Positions 3,529-63,215 of a DNA stretch of 63,216 nucleotides are shown in pieces; the stretch's first letter is position 1; the number at the start of each line of letters is the position of its first letter. A model generated the notes under the pieces. That model made no database searches and was not told where the DNA came from. It worked only from the letters and a program-made list of their open reading frames with translations. This DNA is from Bacillota bacterium (GTDB taxonomy: Bacteria; Bacillota; Dethiobacteria; DTU022). The position numbers and the translations under genes were made by a program. The stretch lies in NCBI GenBank assembly GCA_012799185.1, contig JAAZLS010000009.1, positions 1-63,216 on the forward strand. Reading direction: 5' to 3'.

Positions 3529-3804
3529 ATGTTGGACGATCTGATAGCTTTTACTTTTGGCCTGATGGCTGTAAGCAAGGAGAAGGGGGAGGAGTTAATT
3601 ACCTACCTGGTGGAAAAAGGGGAGATGAAGCGGGAAGAGGCCCGGAAAGTAGTAGACCGGCTGATCGAAAAGGGGAGCGCAGAGGGGGAACGCTATCTTG
3701 GTCGGGCCCGGGGTGCCATCGCCGAGAGGATTATTACCAGGGAAGATTTTAACCGCCTGGAATCTAAAATCGATCGGCTTCTCGCAAAGCTGGAGGCCAA
3801 ATAA
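3529..3804 (+). CDS. phasin-like / PHA synthesis regulator-like small coiled-coil protein
   Basis: A 91-aa, highly charged helical protein (GEELITYLVEKGEMKREEARKVVDRLIEKG) resembling COG3937-type phasin family proteins. The call is by pattern only. Confidence 0.45.
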   Translation: MLDDLIAFTFGLMAVSKEKGEELITYLVEKGEMKREEARKVVDRLIEKGSAEGERYLGRARGAIAERIITREDFNRLESKIDRLLAKLEAK

Positions 3805-3831: not shown

Positions 3832-4761
3832 ATGGCGGGAGATATCTACTGTGCGATCGATATCGGAGGAACCAAGACCCTGTTCTGCCTGCTCGACCGG
3901 GATCGGAATATCTATTTCAAAAGGCGTCTCCCTACCCCTGCCGGCAAAGAGGTGGAGGTACTGGTCGATACGGTTAACCGGGGCATAAATCGGGGCCTGG
4001 AGGAGACCGGCCTGGCTACTGAAAATTTAACGGGGATCGGGATCTGCATCGCCGCCTTGACAAATTTCCAGCAGGGGATCGTTTACCAGGCGCCCAACCT
4101 GGGCTGGACCCAACCGGTGGCCCTGAAGGATTATTTTAGGAAAACCTGGGGCTGTCCCCTTTATATTGAGAATGACGCCAATGCCGCTGTCCTGGGTGAG
4201 GTCTATTACGGGGCTGCCCGTGGACATCGCCATGTAATCTACATTACAATAAGTACCGGCATCGGGGGGGGGCTCTTTTTAGACGGGCAGCTTTACCGTG
4301 GGGCCGGCGGCTTTGCCGGTGAAATCGGGCATACAAAGTCGTACGGGGAGGGCCGTACTTGCGGATGTGGTGGCAGCGATTGCCTGGAGGCTTGGGCCTC
4401 CGGCAGGGGGATCGCCAGGAGTGCCGGGCGGCGGGGGGAAGACGGGTGGGATACCGCCCGGATATTTGCAAGGGCGGCCCGAGGAGATCACCGGGCCCGG
4501 GAGCTGGTCGACCAGGCGGTAACAGATATCGCTACCGGGGTGGCCAACCTGGTAACTTTCCTCAACCCCTCCTGCGTTGTTCTAGGGGGATCGGTAGCGG
4601 CAGCCAATCCGTTTTTTTTCGAGCGAGTAAGGGACTTTGTTCAAAACAAGGCTATCAGGACAGCCGTAACGGTAACGCCCCTAGAGATAGTTCCTTCCGT
4701 GCTTGAACCAGAGGCGGGAATCTGGGGAATATATGCTATGATGATTCACGAAATAGGTTAA
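3832..4761 (+). CDS. glcK: ROK-family glucokinase
   Basis: It has the N-terminal DIGGTK ATP-binding motif, the ROK signature with the Cys cluster CGCGGSDCLE, and GGGLF and GEIGH motifs. Confidence 0.8.
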   Translation: MAGDIYCAIDIGGTKTLFCLLDRDRNIYFKRRLPTPAGKEVEVLVDTVNRGINRGLEETGLATENLTGIGICIAALTNFQQGIVYQAPNLGWTQPVALKDYFRKTWGCPLYIENDANAAVLGEVYYGAARGHRHVIYITISTGIGGGLFLDGQLYRGAGGFAGEIGHTKSYGEGRTCGCGGSDCLEAWASGRGIARSAGRRGEDGWDTARIFARAARGDHRARELVDQAVTDIATGVANLVTFLNPSCVVLGGSVAAANPFFFERVRDFVQNKAIRTAVTVTPLEIVPSVLEPEAGIWGIYAMMIHEIG

Positions 4762-5502: not shown

Positions 5503-6849
5503 CTAGGCCGGCCCCTCCCGCTCGGCGTTATAGTAGATCGCCATCGTATTAAGAAGGGTAATCAGGGCGAAGGCCGCACCGTAGGCCCAGATCACCCCGG
5601 AGAGCCCGTAGGCCGGGTCGGCGGTCAAATAGTAGATTAAGGCCAGGCTGAAAGCGGTGCCCGTTATATCATTTATTACCGCTACCTCCGGTCTACCCAG
5701 GCCATGCAATATAGAGGTAGTGGTAAATTGCAGGTAGGCGAGGGGAGCCAACGGGGCGAGCATGATCACCAGCGGGATTGCTCCCGGGTTCCCATAGATA
5801 GTTTTTACCAGCAACGGGGCGAAGGGAGTTAAAACCAGCCAAGTTAGTCCGCCGGTAGCGGCGGTAGCGATAAGGGCGATGGTGATCAGGCGGTGGAGAT
5901 GGCGGGGCGAGCGCAGGGTTGCCGACTGGGCTACCGCCGGCACCAGGACCATGTTCATGGGAACGATTAGTACTGTCGGTAGGTAGAGAAGGGGTACAGC
6001 CATACCGGAAAATTGCCCGAAAAGGGCCGTAGCCTGGCTGGGGCTAAAGCCGGCCACCTGGAGGCGGGAGGGTATAATCCAGGATTCCAGTGTTCCGGTT
6101 AGACCGGCACTCAGGCGGTAGGCCAGGAGGGGCAAAGCTAGGCCAAACAGTTCTCCCTTTAGGAGGCGTCGCTTCGGAGTGGGAGGGACTTGGAGGGGAG
6201 AACGGCGGTGACGGTGACTGAAAAGGGCCAGCAGGCCCAGTCCACTGAATTCGCCGGCGGCGATACCTATTACCAGCCCCAGGGTAGCATATTCCAATCC
6301 TAGCGGTAGTAAAAGGCAGGCGGCGGCCAGGCCGACACCAATTCTAACCAGCTGCTCTCCCAGCTGGGAGGTGGCCACCGGGAACATCTCGCCGCGACCC
6401 TGAAAATAGGCGCGTAAAATCGAAGAGAAGGCAACCACCGTGTAGGCTACCGGCATAAGGCGCAACCCGGGAATAATACGCGGATCGGGAACAAATTTTA
6501 ACGGAAAACAGAGCAGGATCCAGAGAAGCAAAGAGATAACAAGGGCGGTAGGGAAGGTAAAAGATAGGGCCAATCTTTGCACCTGGAGTTGCCCTGTCTG
6601 ATCATTTAAGGCATGGCGGTCGGCCACCATTTTGGTTACCGCTCCCGGTAATCCCAGGGTAGCCCCGACCGTCAATAGGAAATAGAGCGGTAAGATCATC
6701 TGGTATAGTCCCAGGCCTTCCGCACCGATCAGGCGGGAGAGATACATCCGGTTAACCATGCCTAGCAGGCGGGTAATTATGGAGGCTATCCCCAGCTGGC
6801 CGACCCCTTTAAGTAATTTTCTGCCGACAAATAATTTATTACGGGCCAT
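5503..6849 (-). CDS. MOP-superfamily polysaccharide/lipid II flippase (SpoVB/MurJ-like)
   Basis: A 448-aa polytopic membrane protein. The N-terminus (GRKLLKGVGQLGIASIITRLLGMVNRMYLSRLIGAEGLGLYQM) is typical of SpoVB-type Wzx-like flippases. Confidence 0.65.
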   Translation of the reverse strand: MARNKLFVGRKLLKGVGQLGIASIITRLLGMVNRMYLSRLIGAEGLGLYQMILPLYFLLTVGATLGLPGAVTKMVADRHALNDQTGQLQVQRLALSFTFPTALVISLLLWILLCFPLKFVPDPRIIPGLRLMPVAYTVVAFSSILRAYFQGRGEMFPVATSQLGEQLVRIGVGLAAACLLLPLGLEYATLGLVIGIAAGEFSGLGLLALFSHRHRRSPLQVPPTPKRRLLKGELFGLALPLLAYRLSAGLTGTLESWIIPSRLQVAGFSPSQATALFGQFSGMAVPLLYLPTVLIVPMNMVLVPAVAQSATLRSPRHLHRLITIALIATAATGGLTWLVLTPFAPLLVKTIYGNPGAIPLVIMLAPLAPLAYLQFTTTSILHGLGRPEVAVINDITGTAFSLALIYYLTADPAYGLSGVIWAYGAAFALITLLNTMAIYYNAEREGPA

Positions 6850-6937
6850 CTTGTTCTATCCTATGCCCCCGATGGGTATTAAAGAAGATTCGGGCCATGG
6901 TATAATTAGCTGATCTATAATAAGGGTAGGAGGAAAG

Positions 6938-8293
6938 ATGAAAGTCACCCCCCTGGAACGGGATTTAACATACTACATCGAAACCTTTGGTTGCCAGATG
7001 AATGAGCATGATAGCGAGGTGCTGGCGGGGATGCTGGAGAGTATCGGTTATCTGCCGGCCGACACCCCCGGAGAGGCGGACCTAATTCTACTTAACACCT
7101 GCGCCGTCCGACAGAAGCCGGAGCAGAAGGTCTACGCCTTACTGGGCAAGCTAAGACCCTTGAAAGAAAGGAACCCGGCCCTAGTGATCGCCGTCGCCGG
7201 TTGCATGCCCCAGCAGGAGGGAACCCCCCGGGATCTGGCCCGACGTTTTGATTTCATCGATTTAATCCTGGGTACCCATGCTCTCCCCCACCTGCCGCGT
7301 TTACTGGAAGAGGCCCGGGAAAGGGATAAACCGCTGATCGACACCGGAGAATATGAGCTATCCCGGTCGGGGCTACCGGTTCGCCGGGCCAGCCATTTTA
7401 AGGCCTGGCTGAACGTCATTTATGGTTGCAATAACTATTGCTCCTACTGTGTTGTCCCCTATGTCCGGGGGAGGGAGCGAAGTCGTACCAAGGAAGATAT
7501 TATGAAGGAGGCGACAGGACTAGCTCGCGCTGGCTACCGGGAGATAACCCTGCTCGGACAGAATGTAAACTCCTACGGCCAGGATCTATACGGACCACGG
7601 GGCTACGCCTTTGCCGATCTGCTGCTTGACCTGAATCAGGTTGAGGCCCTTTCCCGAATACGTTTCTTAACCTCCCATCCCAAGGATCTCTCTACCCGCC
7701 TGATCCAGGCGGTGGGGGAGGGGGAACGGGCTTGCGAGCATTTCCATCTCCCGGTGCAATCGGGGAGTAACCGCCTTTTAAAGGAGATGAATCGGCGCTA
7801 CAGCCGGGTGAGATACCTGGAGCTGGTAGCGGAGATTAAAGAGACGATCCCCGGGGTAGCACTAACTACCGATCTTATTGTCGGCTACCCGGGAGAAAGG
7901 GAAGAGGATTTCTTGCAAACCCTGGACCTGGTAGAAAGAGCCCGCTTTGATAGCGCCTTTGCCTTTCTCTATTCGCCGCGGGCGGGAACCCGGGCGGCTT
8001 TAAAAAAGGATAGCCTCCCACAGGAAGAGAAGAAAAAACGGTTACAGGAAATATTTAAGTTACAAAACAGGATCAGCCTGGAGATAAACCGGGCTCTGGT
8101 CGGCCAGACCCTGGAGCTCCTAGTGGAGGGGACCAGCAGGAGGGATCCACGGATGCAGTCGGGCCGTAGTCGCAGCAATAAACTTGTTCATTTTCCAGCG
8201 GATCAAGAGCTGGCGGGGAGACTGGTAGAGGTACCGGTAGCTGAAGCCTATACCTGGCACCTGGTGGGAGAATCACCGCGGGGAGGGAGTTAG
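6938..8293 (+). CDS. miaB: tRNA-2-methylthio-N6-dimethylallyladenosine synthase
   Basis: It has a UPF0004 N-domain (FGCQMNEHDSE), the radical-SAM motif CNNYCSYCVVP and a C-terminal TRAM domain. Its position before mutS matches the Firmicute arrangement. Confidence 0.92.
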   Translation: MKVTPLERDLTYYIETFGCQMNEHDSEVLAGMLESIGYLPADTPGEADLILLNTCAVRQKPEQKVYALLGKLRPLKERNPALVIAVAGCMPQQEGTPRDLARRFDFIDLILGTHALPHLPRLLEEARERDKPLIDTGEYELSRSGLPVRRASHFKAWLNVIYGCNNYCSYCVVPYVRGRERSRTKEDIMKEATGLARAGYREITLLGQNVNSYGQDLYGPRGYAFADLLLDLNQVEALSRIRFLTSHPKDLSTRLIQAVGEGERACEHFHLPVQSGSNRLLKEMNRRYSRVRYLELVAEIKETIPGVALTTDLIVGYPGEREEDFLQTLDLVERARFDSAFAFLYSPRAGTRAALKKDSLPQEEKKKRLQEIFKLQNRISLEINRALVGQTLELLVEGTSRRDPRMQSGRSRSNKLVHFPADQELAGRLVEVPVAEAYTWHLVGESPRGGS

Positions 8294-26712: not shown

Positions 26713-26970
26713 AAAAAATAAAGCCTTTCATCAAAGAGACGAAAGGCTGTTTTCGCGGTACCACTCTTTTTGTAATTAAAACATTAATTACCCGCTTGTT
26801 TGTGATAACGGTTCAATACCGGCCGCGCTTAATCTGGTTATTACCATTTCGGGCGGCAGCTCCCGGAGGAGTTTGCTTAAGCCCCCCTGCCGCCTTGCAC
26901 CAGCCGGCGGCTCGCTGTAAAGGCAGCTTAAGCTACTGGTTCCGATCCTGACCTGTTCTAAAGATAAATG
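26713..26970 (-). promoter_or_regulatory. T-box riboswitch leader of leuA
   Basis: The minus-strand RNA contains the T-box core AGAGUGGUACCGCG (26754-26766). It is followed by the terminator AGCCUUUC-gucucuuugau-GAAAGGCU-UUAUUUUUU (26713-26748). The upstream Stem-I-like region has an AGUA motif, a distal loop GGCUGGUGCAA and CUU/CUC (Leu) triplets. Confidence 0.8.
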
Positions 26971-37416: not shown

Positions 37417-38853
37417 TTAATTTAACCAAAGCTGTTTCGTCCGTTCGGTAATCGGCCGGTGATAGAACAAAAGTATGGCCGGAATCAACAGAAACAGTAG
37501 ACGCCCGAAGATCGTGTTGGCAAATAAGATCAGTGCGCCCAGCCAGCGGTTCCTACCGCTATAAATACCCCGGATTGCCTCCCTGTCCACGGTTTTAATC
37601 ATGGCCCCGGTTTCGGACAGGGGGGGGTAATTGTCGATATCGACCCGGTATAACCCCTTCTCTATACCGATCACCCGCTCCACATAGGTAACATAGTGTT
37701 CCTCGAATAAAATGATCTGGCCAACTTCAACCTTGTCGTCGGGTTCAATCTGTTTAAAATAAACCAGATCATTGAGCATGATTTCCGGCTCCATGGTAGA
37801 AGACTTAAATATATAGGGAATTGTTCCCCGGAAGGAGACCTCCCTTCCCAGGGTAGAGGCATTAATCGCTAGAATTACCAGATTAAAAGAGAGGGCGGCC
37901 AGGATGAAGAGAATCAAGAACGAAACAGAGGCAACATCGAATATTTTGCGACGACGGGCCTGTCTCTTTCCATTGCCCAAGGCTCTCCCCCGCCCAGTTT
38001 TGGGGTCGATCAATACCACCCGCTCCCCGGGTGTTAGTATCCCATCATAACCGGTATCGGGTAGATAGTAGTACTTGGATATATTGCGGGCCATGACTAT
38101 ACAGACCAGGATAAATACAGAGACAATTGCCGCTGCTGCCGGTAGAAACGGTGAGCGACCGATATCAAATAGGTTGTAGAGATTTTGCATTGCGACCCGG
38201 TTTGACAGGATCGAATAATAGCCCAATTTTATTTTTAGTATTATTAATAGGATAAAGGAGAAGGCAATAAAATAGCGGGCACCGGTTATGGACTTAACAA
38301 AAGTTGAGAGGGTCATGGAGATAATAATCATAATAATGAGATCAATCAACCCGGCTAGGTACAGGGAGGGAAAATAGGCCGGGATCAGGCTATATTTTAA
38401 GAAATATGTCATAAAGGCCGTGAAGAAAAAACCTATGGTGTAAACAAATATTGTTGATAGCAGCAAGGCGGTCAACTTGGAAAAGATCATGGTTAGCGGA
38501 TTATAGCCCATCTTAACCAAGAGGTACCAGGAGTTTTGCTTTATCTCATAAAAAAAGAGGGAGTCATAGTTCAAAATATAGTAAAAGATATTTAAAACCA
38601 GGGCCACGTGGATATAGATATAGAGGGTTGAAAAATAGCTAGGCTGCATAATTTGCGGGATCGCCTCCAGGAGCACACTCTCCCTCAGCGGTTGAGCAGC
38701 AAAGAAAACTGCGAAGGAGATAAGACCTAAAAAGAGAGCAAAGACCACCCTTTGCTTGCTACTGACTATATTTTCCGTATAGCCCTGGCGCAGCTCTTTA
38801 CTAAAATAGCTGTGCTTATAAATCATATTGCCGGTCAATCTCCTCGTAGGCAT
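37417..38853 (-). CDS. polytopic membrane protein fused to a SipW-like (S26B) signal-peptidase domain with substituted catalytic residues
   Basis: About 6 TM segments span residues 35-265, followed by a basic linker, a TM anchor, an S26-like domain (KSSTMEPEIMLNDLVYF...VTYVERVIGI...YRVDIDNYP) and a C-terminal TM. Compared with the neighbouring SipW (SGSMEP / THRII / KGDN), the nucleophile Ser is Thr (ACC, 37795-37797) and the His is Glu (GAG, 37678-37680). An alternative start is the ATG at 38826. Confidence 0.6.
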   Translation of the reverse strand: MPTRRLTGNMIYKHSYFSKELRQGYTENIVSSKQRVVFALFLGLISFAVFFAAQPLRESVLLEAIPQIMQPSYFSTLYIYIHVALVLNIFYYILNYDSLFFYEIKQNSWYLLVKMGYNPLTMIFSKLTALLLSTIFVYTIGFFFTAFMTYFLKYSLIPAYFPSLYLAGLIDLIIMIIISMTLSTFVKSITGARYFIAFSFILLIILKIKLGYYSILSNRVAMQNLYNLFDIGRSPFLPAAAAIVSVFILVCIVMARNISKYYYLPDTGYDGILTPGERVVLIDPKTGRGRALGNGKRQARRRKIFDVASVSFLILFILAALSFNLVILAINASTLGREVSFRGTIPYIFKSSTMEPEIMLNDLVYFKQIEPDDKVEVGQIILFEEHYVTYVERVIGIEKGLYRVDIDNYPPLSETGAMIKTVDREAIRGIYSGRNRWLGALILFANTIFGRLLFLLIPAILLFYHRPITERTKQLWLN

Positions 38854-39814
38854 TTTGAACCGTTTTCGGGTTTACCTTCATGGACCGGGGTGCGAAACCG
38901 CTCCTGATAATATTTTCATAAATTAAATGGGGATCAGTATTATCCTCACCGGGTTCACTAATAAGCAGGCGCCGGCCCTTTAATGTAAAATGGAGTTCGG
39001 GCAGCCGGGGAGCAAGCCGCTCCATAATTTGAGGGGCCTCCGGATCTTCGATTATAAGTAGGATCTTGTCATAGGTCAGGCGCAGCTCCTCTACCGTTCC
39101 TTGGTAGATCATTCTTCCTTCCGCTACGTAAGCCGTGTGGCTGCAGCTTTTTTCAATTAACCGACAATCTTTGCTGCCCATAATAAGGGTCTTCCCTCGC
39201 TCCTTAATCAGAGCGGCAATATGGGCGATCGCTGTAGAGAGCATCCTGTTAAACCGGTATTCGGGAACATTAAAGACAATCATCACGCTCTCCGAATAGG
39301 CGGTAACCAGCAAGGTGACTACTACCTTTTCCTCCCTGGTTAGTCGCGCGATCGGGGTTAGAGAAATAGGCCCCAAGCCAATCGACAACAGCAGCTCGAA
39401 AATCTGTTCCTGCCGGTAAACTGCGCCGCTACCCCTTTTAGCAGTGGCAAACATGAGAAATTCCAACACATTCATATTATCATAAAGCATGGTCGGACCG
39501 CAGATATAGAAAACATGTTCCAAGATCACCCGCTTATTGCGCATCATACCCCGCTCGACCAGGATACAGCGGCCGGCGTGATAAGGTTTAATATTGGCCA
39601 TTACCTCTAGCAATAGCTTGATTTCCAAAAGGGAGCGCCCATAGATACCCCATGATTCCGGCCTTTTAATCACCAGGTTAATATTTTCCAGAACCCGCCG
39701 CGGCCGCTCTCCCCGGGTATGATAATGTTCGATCGAAGAGAGCCCCTCCATAAAGACCACCGTCTCCACGGTATTGAAGCCCGGCTCTAACTGTCTTCTT
39801 ACCGTCCGCTTCAT
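38816..39814 (-). CDS. ABC-ATPase-like protein with degenerate Walker A, signature, Walker B and H-loop (predicted pseudo-ATPase)
   Basis: The overall ABC NBD layout is present (VLENINLVI..PESWGIYG...; ...MIYQGTVEEL), but every catalytic motif is replaced. Walker A reads GIYGRSLLEIK instead of GxxGxGKT. The signature reads LTREEK instead of LSGGQ. Walker B reads VMIVFNVPE instead of hhhhDEP. The H-loop reads GSKD instead of SH. Confidence 0.55.
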   Translation of the reverse strand: MKRTVRRQLEPGFNTVETVVFMEGLSSIEHYHTRGERPRRVLENINLVIKRPESWGIYGRSLLEIKLLLEVMANIKPYHAGRCILVERGMMRNKRVILEHVFYICGPTMLYDNMNVLEFLMFATAKRGSGAVYRQEQIFELLLSIGLGPISLTPIARLTREEKVVVTLLVTAYSESVMIVFNVPEYRFNRMLSTAIAHIAALIKERGKTLIMGSKDCRLIEKSCSHTAYVAEGRMIYQGTVEELRLTYDKILLIIEDPEAPQIMERLAPRLPELHFTLKGRRLLISEPGEDNTDPHLIYENIIRSGFAPRSMKVNPKTVQNAYEEIDRQYDL

Positions 39815-39838: not shown

Positions 39839-40372
39839 TTAAGTAAATGGCATTTTCCATAAAAGTACAGCAATTACCCGGTCGGGGGTAAGCAGTTCCA
39901 GGTCCGGGGAGCTGATCGGATTATCCCCCTTGGTCCGATAGCTGACAGTGCCATCGTCAGCAACTATAACCTCAATAATCCGGTGGGTAATAGTTAAACC
40001 GGACTCGTTCCTAAAGGTAACAATCTCATTTTCCTTAAGTCTAGACGCATCCTTAGGCTTACGGGATAGGATCACCGCCCCCACGGGCAGAGTGGGCTCC
40101 ATGCTCCCCGATTCAATCATGTAGAGCTGGTATCCCAAGAGATCGGGGGTTTTCCCCCGGCTTTTTGCCACCTGGATCGAGACCAGTGCCGCCAGCATTA
40201 AAACAATTACAATCGAAAAAAATACCCGCCCGGTAACCCTGGCCAACCGCGATCTCTCTTTTTTCCGCCGGCCTCGTCTCCCCTTAGCGCGGAATATAGC
40301 CTGGCGCATGGCCTCGATCTGTTCCGGGGTAGTATACTTTGGGTCCTGCATGGCCCCAGGCCCCTCCTCCAT
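39839..40372 (-). CDS. sipW: signal peptidase I, SipW/archaeal-ER type (S26B)
   Basis: A single N-terminal TM, then ESGSMEPTL, ITHRII and TKGDNP, so all catalytic boxes are intact. The start may be the second ATG, 21 nt downstream, which follows GGAGGAGGGG. Confidence 0.8.
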   Translation of the reverse strand: MEEGPGAMQDPKYTTPEQIEAMRQAIFRAKGRRGRRKKERSRLARVTGRVFFSIVIVLMLAALVSIQVAKSRGKTPDLLGYQLYMIESGSMEPTLPVGAVILSRKPKDASRLKENEIVTFRNESGLTITHRIIEVIVADDGTVSYRTKGDNPISSPDLELLTPDRVIAVLLWKMPFT

Positions 40373-40551: not shown

Positions 40552-41118
40552 TTAGTCTTCGTCTGTAGCTTCTTGTTGGGTGCCGGTTACCGATACGGTA
40601 ACTGCGCTGCCGTAGTCGGCTCCGGCGTACTGTGCATCCTCACTCATAGTTTGCCCTTCAGGTATTTCATCGGTTCCAAGGGGCCACTCAATCTTTACAT
40701 TGTAGGTTTTTTCCTGGCCAGTTTCAGCCAACGGGAACTCGTCGGTAAATTTGCCGTCGTCATCCAGATTTATGCTTTGGTCCTCCTCATCAGTTACTGA
40801 AACAACCAGGGGTTCTATAGCATCTTTTCCCTCAGCTGCAGCAAGGGTAACTGCAAACTCCAGATCCATGGCGGTTTCGCTAACCAGGGCCTCCTCATAG
40901 TTCTTTACACTAAATTTCCATTCAACAGTGTCACCGGGGGCGATTTTAATATTCTCCTCAAAAGTATTTGTCTCACCCGGCTTTAGGATAAACTCCTTGG
41001 CCACCACGCTGCCCGCGGCCAAGTCATCAATGGTAATCGAGTACGCGGAAAGGGTGCCGGCAATAAGCGAGGTTGTTATTAACAACACCAGGGCCACAAT
41101 CAAAAGTGTTCTTTTCAT
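40552..41118 (-). CDS. TasA/BsaA/camelysin-like exported protein with SipW-type signal peptide
   Basis: The signal peptide is MKRTLLIVALVLLITTSLIAGTLSAYS (compare the GGT.A.F class). The mature part is a beta-rich domain with APGDTVEWKFSVKN and a terminal VTVSVTGTQ (compare TasA FSFEATQ). It is a paralog of the N-domain of the upstream gene, and its ATG overlaps that gene's TGA. Confidence 0.6.
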   Translation of the reverse strand: MKRTLLIVALVLLITTSLIAGTLSAYSITIDDLAAGSVVAKEFILKPGETNTFEENIKIAPGDTVEWKFSVKNYEEALVSETAMDLEFAVTLAAAEGKDAIEPLVVSVTDEEDQSINLDDDGKFTDEFPLAETGQEKTYNVKIEWPLGTDEIPEGQTMSEDAQYAGADYGSAVTVSVTGTQQEATDED

Positions 41119-42053
41119 TTTCTTTCTTCCTCCTTGTTATTCCAACTAGATTTATTAAACTCACAAGTCAAACTAACAGTCTTCCCGTTTACCCAGACAT
41201 CTTTAATCGGTTCTGTTCCTGTTCCGGTCGCCCAACCACCGAAGGATATACTCCCACCCGGTGAAATATTTTTATTATAGTTTATTGGATAATAGTATCT
41301 ATAGGTGCCGGTAGGCAAATTGTCGTGATCCTCTCTGGCCCCAGCCCATATAGCCGTTATTTGATCATTGTCTAATCTAAAGTTGATCTCCCATCCTTCG
41401 ATCGTTTCTTCCATATTATTCGTAATGGTAATCTGAAATTCAAAGTTGCCATCACCCCATACCCGGGTAGCCTCATATAGTACATGGATACCGTCTTGCG
41501 GCACTTCAGGATCGGGGATATCAAAAGGTAGCTGGGAGGCGATGGCGCTGACCCGGATCGTGTTTCCAAGACCTTCTGGACCATTAAGATAATCGTTATT
41601 GCTCCCGTCGGGCCAGTGAATCTCTACCGTATAATCGCACTCTTGCCCTATTGCTGCAAAGAGAAATTCTCCATAAAGGTCAAAGGTCCCGGTACCGGTA
41701 ACGGAATCGAGAACTTTACCTTCGGCATCCTTTACGCTGACGATTAAAGATTCGATGGCACTTTTGCCTTCGGTGGGGGTAACGTGAAAGGTCAACTTAT
41801 AATAGAGGTCAGTTTCGGTGACAAGGTTTCCATCATGGTTTTTTACTTTAAACGGCCAGTTAATGGTCTCGGCAGGCCCGATCGGTTCGTTCATGGCGAA
41901 GGAGTCGGTACCATCACCTAAAAAGATAAATTCTTTCGCTACCGTAGAGCCGTCAGCCAGATCAACGGTAGCCGAATAGGAGGCCAGGGTCCCGGCCAGG
42001 ATGGACCCGGCGATTAACAAGACCAACAGTAAAATAAGTAATAATCTTTTCAT
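41115..42053 (-). CDS. TasA/BsaA-like exported protein fused to a C-terminal CBM2-like carbohydrate-binding module
   Basis: The signal peptide is MKRLLLILLLVLLIAGSILAGTLASYS and the TasA-like domain is shared with the 40552-41118 product. The C-terminal ~110 aa read VLYEATRVWGDGNFEFQITITNN..ETIEGWEINF......ITAIW......NISPGGSISFGGWATG......VWVNGKTVSLTC, which fits the CBM2 pattern (W.GGF...V.V.N....GW...F......W....N..I..G....FGF.......NG..C). Confidence 0.6.
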   Translation of the reverse strand: MKRLLLILLLVLLIAGSILAGTLASYSATVDLADGSTVAKEFIFLGDGTDSFAMNEPIGPAETINWPFKVKNHDGNLVTETDLYYKLTFHVTPTEGKSAIESLIVSVKDAEGKVLDSVTGTGTFDLYGEFLFAAIGQECDYTVEIHWPDGSNNDYLNGPEGLGNTIRVSAIASQLPFDIPDPEVPQDGIHVLYEATRVWGDGNFEFQITITNNMEETIEGWEINFRLDNDQITAIWAGAREDHDNLPTGTYRYYYPINYNKNISPGGSISFGGWATGTGTEPIKDVWVNGKTVSLTCEFNKSSWNNKEEERK

Positions 42054-42062
42054 TGCGCCACC

Positions 42063-42100
42063 TTATTTTTATAAAAAAATTGCCACCTAAAACATGTAGT
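42063..42100 (-). terminator. imperfect hairpin plus U7 overlapping the 3' end of the aptamer candidate (possible expression platform)
   Basis: The minus-strand RNA reads GCCAGUUGACACUACAUGUUUUAGGUGGC-AA-UUUUUUU. The outer GCCA/UGGC and inner CUA/UAG pairs form, but the interior is poorly paired. The 5' arm is shared with the aptamer 3' end. Confidence 0.35.
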
Positions 42101-42172
42101 GTCAACTGGCTATCTCAATTCCCTCCAGGGAACCGGACCCTTTAGTTTTGCGCCGTGGACTCGCGCCCACGT
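42089..42172 (-). promoter_or_regulatory. candidate GEMM-I-like (cyclic-dinucleotide) riboswitch aptamer in leader of the TasA-like operon
   Basis: The minus-strand RNA reads GUGAAAGGCAAC-[GUGGGC-GCGA-GUCCAC]-GGCGCAAAAC-UAAAGGGUCCGGUUCCCUGGAGGGAAUUGAGAUAGCCAGUUGACAC. This echoes the GEMM-I layout GGCAAAC-[hairpin with GNRA loop]-GGACGCAAAGCC...UAGCCAGCUGCC. It deviates at hallmark positions: one A fewer in GGCAAAC, and GGCGC instead of GGACGC. Confidence 0.4.
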
Positions 42173-42272
42173 TGCCTTTCACTCGAGGAATTTTATTTTA
42201 TTGATACAATAGTATTGCATAAAATTCCTACCGTGTCAACGCTAGAATTAATTATTGGAAGATTCGCCCGGC

Positions 42273-43076
42273 TTATCGGCCCTTGGCCAGGAGCAGGCGA
42301 TCCTGCTGTAGCTCCTCTCCGCTGGCTTCATAGAACATATCTACCAGGTCGCTAACGGTCAGGTTCTTCCGATCGGGGCCGGAAACATCTAGAATAATTT
42401 TTCCTTCATGCATCATAATCGTCCGGTGGCCCATTTTAAGGGCTTGTTCCATATTGTGGGTGACCATCAGGGTGGTGATCCCCTGGTTTTCGATTAGCTT
42501 TTCGGTTAGCTCCAAGACCGTGTTGGCGGTTTTAGGATCTAGGGAGGCGGTATGTTCATCCAGCAAAGCCAGCTTAGGTTCCTTCAGGGTGGTCATCAGC
42601 AAGGCCAGGGCCTGTCTCTGTCCCCCCGAGAGCAACTTGACCGGTGAGTTTAATCTTTCCTCAAGCCCCAACTGAAGGCTTAACAGCCGCTCTTGGAAAA
42701 AAACCCGGTTAGAGTCGGCAATAGCCCAGCGCAGCCGACGCTTATCTCCCCGGCGAAGGGCCAGGGCCAAATTTTCCTCTACAGTTAGGGAGGCAGCGGT
42801 ACCCACCATCGGATCTTGAAATACGTGACAAATAGAGGCCGCCCTCCTGTAATCAGGGAGGCGGGTTACCTCCTCACCGTTTAAACTAACCGTCCCTTCC
42901 TCTGCTTGGTAGATACCGGCAATGCATTTCAACAGTGTTGATTTACCGGCCCCGTTACCGCCAATAATAGTGGTGAACTGCCCTTTTTCCAGGGAGAGGC
43001 TAACCCTATCCAGGGCCACCCTTTCATTTATGCTTCCTGGGTAAAAAATTTTAGTTAACGATTTTACATTTAACAT
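42273..43076 (-). CDS. ABC transporter ATP-binding protein (COG1101-type)
   Basis: Intact Walker A GGNGAGKST, signature LSGGQRQ, Walker B LALLDEHT and H-loop VTHN. Confidence 0.88.
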   Translation of the reverse strand: MLNVKSLTKIFYPGSINERVALDRVSLSLEKGQFTTIIGGNGAGKSTLLKCIAGIYQAEEGTVSLNGEEVTRLPDYRRAASICHVFQDPMVGTAASLTVEENLALALRRGDKRRLRWAIADSNRVFFQERLLSLQLGLEERLNSPVKLLSGGQRQALALLMTTLKEPKLALLDEHTASLDPKTANTVLELTEKLIENQGITTLMVTHNMEQALKMGHRTIMMHEGKIILDVSGPDRKNLTVSDLVDMFYEASGEELQQDRLLLAKGR

Positions 43077-63139: not shown

Positions 63140-63215
63140 GCCGACGTAGCTCAATTGGCAGAGCAGCTGATTTGTAATCAGCAGGTTACCAGTTCAAGTC
63201 TGGTCGTCGGCTCCA
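63140..63215 (+). tRNA. tRNA-Thr (anticodon UGU), encoded CCA
   Basis: A hand-folded cloverleaf. Acceptor GCCGACG/CGTCGGC, D arm GCTC-AATTGGCA-GAGC, anticodon arm GCTGA-TTTGTAA-TCAGC (UGU), variable loop AGGTT, T arm ACCAG-TTCAAGT-CTGGT, discriminator T and CCA. Confidence 0.9.

Follow-up and report, generated by a model that had tools for sequence, protein, structure and literature searches.

Class I cyclic di-GMP (c-di-GMP-I, or GEMM-I) riboswitches have been described from both Vibrio and Bacillus. The Vc2 aptamer of the Vibrio cholerae tfoY leader (3IRW) is built around a P1a/P1b/P2 junction in which G20 makes a Hoogsteen contact to the ligand guanine G-alpha and A47 intercalates (numbering of PMC11218506 and PMC4744006), while C92 is the Watson-Crick partner of G-beta (PMC5888326). 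The interhelical C44-G83 pair (PMC4744006, PMC11705072) is universally conserved according to PMC4744006. Vc2 does not work simply as a terminator switch (bioRxiv 10.1101/617340). The Bc2 aptamer of Bacillus thuringiensis lies before cap, the gene of a collagen adhesion protein, and is described in PMC11218506, citing PMC4933901, as an experimentally shown transcriptional ON switch. Here we describe a class I leader from an uncultured Bacillota bacterium of biogas and anaerobic digesters, located on contig JAAZLS010000009.1 of assembly GCA_012799185.1. The whole stretch of 63,216 nt that was analysed is referred to as the window, and the leader and its operon lie on the minus strand. We put the probability at about 0.8 that the leader is a class I c-di-GMP ON riboswitch acting on an operon of secreted proteins and a SipW-like signal peptidase, and that the copy in the window is a C92A allele that responds poorly to the ligand and is probably leakier.

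Two further groups of described RNAs are relevant to the comparison. In the receptor-less GEMM type (Weinberg et al. 2007, Fig. 2B) the P1b hairpin ends in a GYRA loop and P2 has no tetraloop receptor, following the rule that a receptor accompanies a GAAA loop and none accompanies a GYRA loop, and many GEMM copies have a terminator in competition with the aptamer's 3' side (PMC1950547). The variants GEMM-Ib, c-di-GMP-I-GGC and c-di-GMP-I-UAU share a common scaffold and are defined by positions 20, 47 and 92, A20 being the signature linked to GEMM-Ib, which senses 3'3'-cyclic GMP-AMP (3'3'-cGAMP). On the protein side, the operon to compare is tapA-sipW-tasA of Bacillus subtilis, in which a dedicated SipW-type peptidase is encoded beside secreted beta-sandwich proteins whose signal peptides are of a matching type. 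It is under SinR control, unlike the operon of the window with its riboswitch.

The window was scanned with cmscan against all 4227 Rfam families at curated thresholds, and three matches were returned. The match in the leader is to c-di-GMP-I (RF01051) at 42186-42098, with 46.4 bits (E = 6.6e-6; 4.2e-8 when a region of 401 nt was scanned alone), above the gathering score of 35, and it spans model positions 1-87 of 87. In the scan of the 401-nt region two further families of the RF01051 clan matched less well in the overlap and were suppressed. The c-di-GMP-II family (RF01786) gave no match in the whole-window gathering scan, nor at E <= 10 in 41950-42350. The original prediction, made from the letters alone, had proposed a GEMM-I-like leader at 42063-42172 and had named these two Rfam families as the comparison to make. 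Its identification of the RNA stands; its 5' boundary does not, as a start at 42172 clips the first 14 nt of the aptamer, including G20. The aptamer starts at 42186 and P1a at 42183, and the RNA text quoted with the prediction does cover most of the clipped stretch. That text, GUGAAAGGCAAC-GUGGGC-GCGA-GUCCAC-GGCGCAAAACUAAAGGGUCC...AUAGCCAGUUGACACU followed by a hairpin, AAU7, the Shine-Dalgarno (SD) sequence and ATG, is an accurate reading of the minus strand.

The full-length aptamer (42098..42186) has all the helices of the family. The 5' strand of P1a, AGUG (42180..42183), pairs with CACU (42101-42098). The equivalent of G20, the G-alpha contact, is present as G at 42176 (model position 11 in the cmscan alignment). 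The P1b hairpin (42150..42175) begins with GC/GC at its base, continues through the AAC/GGC internal loop into a GUGGGC/GUCCAC stem, and is capped by a GCGA tetraloop (42164-42161) of the GYRA type. An AAA linker at 42149-42147 joins P1b to P2, and its first nucleotide, the first A of GCAAAA at 42149 (model position 38), is the equivalent of the intercalating A47; it stands 27 nt after the G20 equivalent, the same spacing as in Vc2 and Bc1 (PMC11218506). P2 (42104..42147) is formed by AACU/AGUU, GG/CC and GUC/GAU followed by a continuous CGGUUCCC-UGGA-GGGAAUUG helix, and contains no 11-nt tetraloop receptor. The interhelical C44-G83 pair is kept as C42152 (model position 35) and G42110 (model position 74). 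The RNA thus shares with Vc2 its family, the three-helix junction, G20 and A47, the C44-G83 pair and the AAA linker (PMC11705072, PMC4744006). It differs in having GCGA and a continuous P2 where Vc2 has GAAA and the 11-nt receptor, in a conserved terminator that lies over C92 and P1a, and, in the window allele, in A at position 92. From the receptor-less subtype, which has the same GYRA loop, receptor-free P2 and competing terminator (PMC1950547), there is no substantial difference, and the RNA belongs to it. Relatives reach 64-71 bits with RF01051, and the lower score of the window copy is mostly due to its GYRA, receptor-less P2 form.

Hallmark positions were assigned by adding 9 to the Rfam model position to obtain the Vc2 number. 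This offset was fixed from published correspondences, namely Vc2 G20/A47/C92 with Bc1 G11/A38/C81 (PMC11218506) and with Vc1 G12/A39/C104 (PMC4744006), and the Vc2 P1a pairs G14-C93 and C13-G94 (PMC11705072). Two deviations had been held against the leader in the original prediction, and neither falls on a contact. GGCAAC, described as having one A fewer than expected, reflects model position 16 (AAA to AAC), which makes no ligand contact. GGCGC had been taken to lack the intercalating A; this was a mis-assignment, because the deviation sits at model position 34 (GAC to GGC) and A47 is present at 42149. Position 34 is G in many of the relatives scoring 64-71 bits, and GGCGC is common among them. 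The sole deviation at a contact site, overlooked at first, is an A at 42102 in the place of C92. With G at 42176 the RNA does not have the A20 of GEMM-Ib, and the combinations G20/A47/A92 in the window and G20/A47/C92 in the common allele match none of AAC, GGC and UAU; RF01051 also outscored the other families of its clan.

A search with an alignment of the downstream protein recovered 66 genomic loci from Clostridia and Peptococcaceae-like Bacillota, and nine more loci (all are numbered with L below) were looked up through the closest protein homologues. A covariance model of our own, built from six Rfam-confirmed matches and run over 603 kb, gave 33 matches of 69-106 bits and one weak match; the window aptamer scores 104.8 bits. 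Strong matches came from 16 of the 66 genomic loci, the nine added loci and the window itself. The usual distance between an aptamer copy and the homologous gene downstream of it is 40-180 nt, and extra copies are often found before downstream paralogues. Over 30 distinct homologous leaders, 92.5% of the alignment cells are paired, and double changes occur at 14 of the 21 pairs. None of 500 shuffles reached the observed pairing values, and when the 3' partners were slid by 1-3 columns the paired fraction was 24-45%. Two-sided changes were found at all four pairs of P1a, and all six pairs of the upper P1b stem covary. Because the alignment was fitted to the model, it is biased towards the structure, but the six-pair covariation in P1b is not accounted for by such fitting alone. 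The loop rule also holds in this set: GAAA loops go together with a CUAA...AUGAC receptor, and the window (GCGA) and L069 and L070 (GUGA) are without one. Judged by its sequence and conserved fold, the leader is a bona fide RF01051 class I riboswitch in the receptor-less GYRA form, with c-di-GMP as its presumed ligand.

The leader occupies an intergenic region of 219 nt, bounded by the stop codon of a gene for an ABC-transporter ATPase (42273) and by the ATG at 42053. Read along the minus strand, it contains a promoter-like site, the aptamer, a hairpin, AAU7, the SD sequence AAGGUGG (42064-42058) and the start codon (42053-42051), the last two together at 42051..42064. The predicted sigma-70-type promoter (42211..42239) has TTGACA at 42239-42234, a 17-nt spacer and TGc-AATACT with the -10 box at 42216-42211. 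It matches the consensus at 10 of 12 positions and has the TG extension, and the identical site is present in L067. Most of the homologous leaders likewise have TTGACA-N17-TAnnnT boxes 20-45 nt 5' of the aptamer.

The hairpin between the aptamer and the SD is a predicted intrinsic terminator (42073..42106). Its 5' arm, GUUG[A/C]CACU (42106-42098), comprises the last two P2 pairs, the nucleotide before C92, C92 itself and the entire 3' strand of P1a; a loop of 10 nt, the 3' arm AGGUGGCAA(U) and U7 (42079-42073) follow. This sharing of the aptamer 3' segment with the terminator 5' arm had been proposed for the window and proved to be kept in nearly all homologues: their 5' arm begins at (U)UGCC(R)C and takes in C92 and the 3' strand of P1a, and the hairpin runs directly into U6-10. 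The exceptions to the overlapping design are L015, L035 and L043:5562. In the C allele, GUUGCCACU (42106-42098) and AGGUGGCAA(U) form a perfect 9-bp stem of -11.1 kcal/mol that abuts U7. The hairpin had been called imperfect in the original prediction. It and its U7 are real, and the imperfection is due to the strain-specific A at 42102, which places an A.G mismatch at the centre of the stem and leaves -3.9 kcal/mol in the conserved register. The A allele can also form a shifted hairpin, GCCA.GUUG.AC/GU.UUAG.UGGC, of -10.6 kcal/mol, which uses P2 nucleotides and leaves AAU before the U tract. By nearest-neighbour energies the terminator fold of the leader (-35.3 kcal/mol) is expected to be favoured over the aptamer fold (-27.0 kcal/mol) when no ligand is bound, as in a switch that needs the energy of the ligand.

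This arrangement, with a shared 5' arm and a U tract ahead of the SD, argues for an ON switch, because closure of P1a and the pairing of C92 with the ligand would exclude the terminator; the polarity is read from the anatomy and its conservation. In the absence of ligand GUUGCCACU would pair with AGGUGGCAA(U), the terminator would form directly before U7 and transcription would halt ahead of the SD. When c-di-GMP is bound, C92 would pair with one of the ligand guanines and the neighbouring CACU would close P1a with AGUG. The 5' arm of the terminator would then be occupied and RNA polymerase would enter the operon, so that high c-di-GMP would lead to more matrix or fibre protein. Antitermination of this kind is in line with Bc2 (PMC11218506) and with the competing terminators of many GEMM copies (PMC1950547). 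The C92A change would remove the Watson-Crick partner of the ligand and at the same time introduce the mismatch in the middle of the terminator. The expected outcome is a poor or absent response to c-di-GMP together with an altered, probably leakier, basal read-through, by which the operon would be partly uncoupled from the signal.

The position of the substitution is well defined. The P1a regions of L001 (protein 60% identical; AGCC-AGUUACCGCG), L002 (54%; AGCC-AGCUGCCGCU) and the window (AGCC-AGUUGACACU) pair in one common register, with G7-C84, U6-G/A85 and G5-C86. Nucleotide 42102 is position 92 (model position 83) because the indel-free alignments fix this register. A 1-nt insertion in front of a true C92 at 42101 was considered and is ruled out, as L001, L002, L067 and L068 all align without indels. 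L067 and L068 are contigs from other samples whose encoded 312-aa protein is identical to that of the window. Against the window, L068 has 8 differences in 4720 nt and L067 has 24 in 5045 aligned positions (99.5-99.8% identity), and their leaders depart from that of the window at just two sites, 42229 and 42102, the latter being C in both. The site at 42229 is a second single-nucleotide polymorphism (SNP) of the leader, A or G on the minus strand, and falls in the promoter spacer. C at 42102 raises the RF01051 score from 46.4 to 50.3 bits, and C occupies the C92 column in all 32 other strong homologous aptamers (n = 33 with the window).

Both alleles are found repeatedly in public sequencing runs (numbered with X), in which they were read from Logan contigs rather than raw reads. 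A at 42102 (T on the plus strand) is present in the window, in X1 (DNA, 2016), in X7 (DNA, 2024) and in X12 (RNA, 2017). C is present in L067 and L068, in X2, X3, X5, X6, X8, X9 and X10 (DNA) and in X4 (RNA). In X11 the contig breaks exactly at 42101 and no allele can be called for 42102. X1 joins A at 42102 with the alternative allele at 42229, so that A occurs on two 42229 haplotypes. An assembly or sequencing error at 42102 is ruled out by the presence of A in the independent runs X1, X7 and X12 and on these two haplotypes. A at 42102 is thus a segregating minority allele of the population: the window allele does not have C92, and the population at this locus does. In Vc2 the change C92U causes a strong loss of riboswitch-dependent RNA accumulation in vivo, which raised c-di-GMP rescues in part (bioRxiv 10.1101/617340). 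By comparison with this mutant and with the homologues, the C92A allele is probably impaired in ligand binding.

Transcripts from the locus were found in two metatranscriptomes, one for each allele. In both, one RNA contig spans the leader, the terminator and the coding sequence. The A-allele contig of X12 runs from 42228 into the coding sequence at a depth of 14.1, compared with 11.2 for the upstream gene; in X4, with the C allele, the depths are 24.1 and 5.8. The contig end at 42228 was considered as a transcription start site and ruled out, since the SNP at 42229 lies next to it and a matching 61-nt bubble is seen in X6.

Several observations weigh against the proposed switch and the proposed effect of the A allele. 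The P1a helix is just 4 bp long. Read-through transcripts exist for both alleles, and read-through from the upstream ABC operon or carry-over of DNA could contribute to them; contig-level RNA depth is too crude a measure for allele-specific regulation. The break at 42228 in RNA and DNA unitigs is caused by the SNP at 42229 and so provides no 5' end for the predicted promoter. A simple terminator scanner with a loop limit of 8 nt calls neither allele, the loop here being 10 nt. The accessible literature yielded a published effect for C92U only and none for C92A itself. Given the -10.6 kcal/mol of the shifted hairpin, the net effect of the A allele could be OFF rather than leaky.

The likeliest alternative is that the A92 allele continues to work as a c-di-GMP switch, which we regard as possible but on the unlikely side. 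The purine would be tolerated through a non-Watson-Crick contact to G-beta at a higher ligand threshold, G20, A47 and stacking would supply the remaining contacts, and the alternative terminator register would keep regulation. The persistence of the A allele, seen from 2016 to 2024 in the runs of at least three studies and with either base at 42229, is consistent with such a role. So are the partial response of Vc2 C92U under raised c-di-GMP (bioRxiv 10.1101/617340), the lower conservation of G20 and C92 compared with A47 across the family (PMC9049102) and the near-equal stability of the alternative hairpin (-10.6 versus -11.1/-12.2 kcal/mol). However, the 32 other strong homologues of this gene context all have C, and the alternative hairpin, which leaves AAU and draws on P2 instead of the P1a strand, would be less directly coupled to the ligand.

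It is doubtful that the A92 allele is locked OFF, with ligand binding lost and the shifted hairpin always terminating or attenuating, which would make it a loss-of-expression allele. An ON switch without ligand is expected to default to OFF, and the shifted hairpin is the minimum free energy (MFE) fold of the A-allele leader. That hairpin is nevertheless broken by two 1x1 mismatches and stands apart from the U tract, and the A-allele RNA contig of X12 crosses the terminator into the coding sequence at the depths given above (14.1 against 11.2 upstream).

Control mainly at the level of translation, in which the GCCAC that the aptamer releases covers the SD, either in place of the terminator hairpin or in addition to it, is unlikely. 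The SD region AAGGUGGC (42057-42064) repeats AGGUGGC of the terminator 3' arm (42081-42087), and GCCAC could mask the ribosome-binding site in read-through transcripts; the MFE fold of the C allele does pair GCCA (42110-42107) with UGGC of the SD region. An SD-like repeat is not evident in L001 and L002, while the hairpin and its U6-10 are kept in nearly all homologues, and U7 directly after a 9-bp stem is typical of an intrinsic terminator.

Very improbable is a reading in which A92 is a functional specificity variant rather than a damaged copy. G20 would go on recognising a guanine, A92 would form a Watson-Crick pair with a uracil or select a non-guanine base in some other way, and the ligand would be a cyclic dinucleotide of mixed bases, for example a CD-NTase product containing UMP, in place of c-di-GMP. 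If it were true, two ligand specificities would segregate in one wild population. A milder version, in which selection keeps an A allele that is blind to c-di-GMP and leaky and so uncouples matrix production, is likelier than the specificity variant. That the leader is a fortuitous match or a decayed relic without regulatory role is scarcely credible: its 46.4 bits against 64-71 in relatives and its one mutated contact base are outweighed by a score above the gathering cut-off over the whole model, a promoter-to-gene placement as in the homologues, compensatory changes, and the fact that most of the score deficit comes from the GYRA receptor-less P2, a known subtype (PMC1950547) also present in L069 and L070.

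The operon downstream of the proposed ON switch consists of five genes. Gene 1 (41115..42053, 312 aa) encodes a signal peptide, a beta-sandwich N-domain and a C-terminal CBM_2 (Pfam 2.9e-12, with PDB profile and Foldseek matches to CBM2 modules). Gene 2 (40552..41118, 188 aa), the start of which overlaps the stop of gene 1 by 4 nt, encodes a paralogue of the gene 1 N-domain with 39% identity and a like type of signal peptide. Gene 3 (39839..40372, 177 aa) is a SipW-like or archaeal-type signal peptidase I (Pfam Peptidase_S26); it scores 72.5 bits with TIGR02228 (cut-off 51.85) and 100 bits with the SipW equivalog, which is under the cut-off of 190 for that model. Gene 4 (38816..39814, 332 aa) encodes a divergent ABC-ATPase-like protein, too divergent for Pfam and with weak NCBIfam matches. 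Gene 5 (37417..38853, 478 aa) encodes a polytopic membrane protein, also with weak NCBIfam matches, the C-terminal third of which is SipW-like, providing a second, fused peptidase-like domain within the operon. The gene order is conserved in L069, L070 and L073. In the RNA runs X12 and X25 the contig depth of gene 2 is 3-4 times that of gene 1, despite the 4-nt overlap of the genes; differential messenger RNA stability, processing or an internal promoter are possible reasons.

The genes had been called fibre genes in the original prediction. The proteins are secreted and accompanied by a SipW-type peptidase; the fibre role itself is an inference, the N-domain being a beta-sandwich with weak fold matches to pilins and Ena fibres. 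The AlphaFold model of the N-domain (pLDDT 77, pTM 0.76) is a beta-sandwich after approximately 25 disordered residues. Its Foldseek matches include the FimA pilin and the Ena2A spore-appendage fibre, both weak and short of significance (E ~1e-3, TM ~0.2-0.35), and no TasA fold is among them; the full-length model of gene 1 matched by its CBM2 domain only. Searches of the N-domain against Pfam and NCBIfam gave no match, including none to Peptidase_M73/TasA. Compared with tapA-sipW-tasA, the window operon has an extra CBM2 and neither the Peptidase_M73/TasA Pfam match nor a TasA fold match. From the predicted structures and the gene content, a fibre or matrix role of the tapA-sipW-tasA kind is plausible. 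At 40760-40783, within gene 2, a dense cluster of SNPs and a 3-nt indel distinguish otherwise near-identical strains (L067, X4 and X25 versus the window); this segment could correspond to a hypervariable loop on the surface of the putative fibre subunit.

The homologous operon is tied to c-di-GMP independently of the riboswitch by the genes that precede it in three loci. GGDEF, EAL, HD-GYP and PAS-GGDEF genes lie directly upstream of it in L069:1-2145, L071:1-2285 and L072:52-930, which suggests a local c-di-GMP signalling module. A motif search of the long open reading frames in the window found no GGDEF or HD-GYP domain. Like Bc2, the window RNA is a Firmicute class I aptamer at a surface or adhesion gene; Bc2 controls cap, and here the element precedes a SipW-dependent beta-sandwich/CBM2 operon.

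Other aptamer copies before this gene family differ at the position of G20. In other Clostridia approximately a quarter of the GEMM-I copies have A there (L036:3853-3951, 5584-5682 and 6868-6966; L043:3828-3932; L047:3850-3946; L053:3828-3926; L073:199-294; L074:350-445), and one has U (L063:2169-2266). In L036, L047 and L053, G20 and A20 copies within one locus precede different paralogues. L036 contains four riboswitch copies, the last two of which (6868-6966 and 7005-7097) are in tandem approximately 40 nt apart. L057 contains two in series (3538-3637 and 3838-3936), each with its own terminator. Elsewhere in the window, the remaining Rfam matches are a full-length T-box leader at 26732-26958 on the minus strand (124 bits) and a tRNA at 63140-63212 on the plus strand (72 bits).

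The riboswitch class with its ligand contacts and its ON and OFF terminator platforms is already known, as are the receptor-less GYRA form, the ON logic and an association with adhesion or matrix genes, and as an annotation the element itself is routine; beyond correcting the mapping of the hallmark positions, what it adds is modest. The new elements are the association with this gene family and a C92A allele that segregates in nature and changes the terminator as well; no literature was found that treats a c-di-GMP riboswitch together with TasA and SipW. A widespread, uncharacterised clostridial SipW/beta-sandwich/CBM2 operon is thereby tied to c-di-GMP; in many cases one to four GEMM-I copies stand before it, and in some there are GGDEF/EAL genes. 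The two alleles are a natural pair for asking how a single nucleotide couples sensing to termination, and the operon is a candidate for a biofilm-matrix or cellulose-anchoring fibre system of anaerobic digesters.

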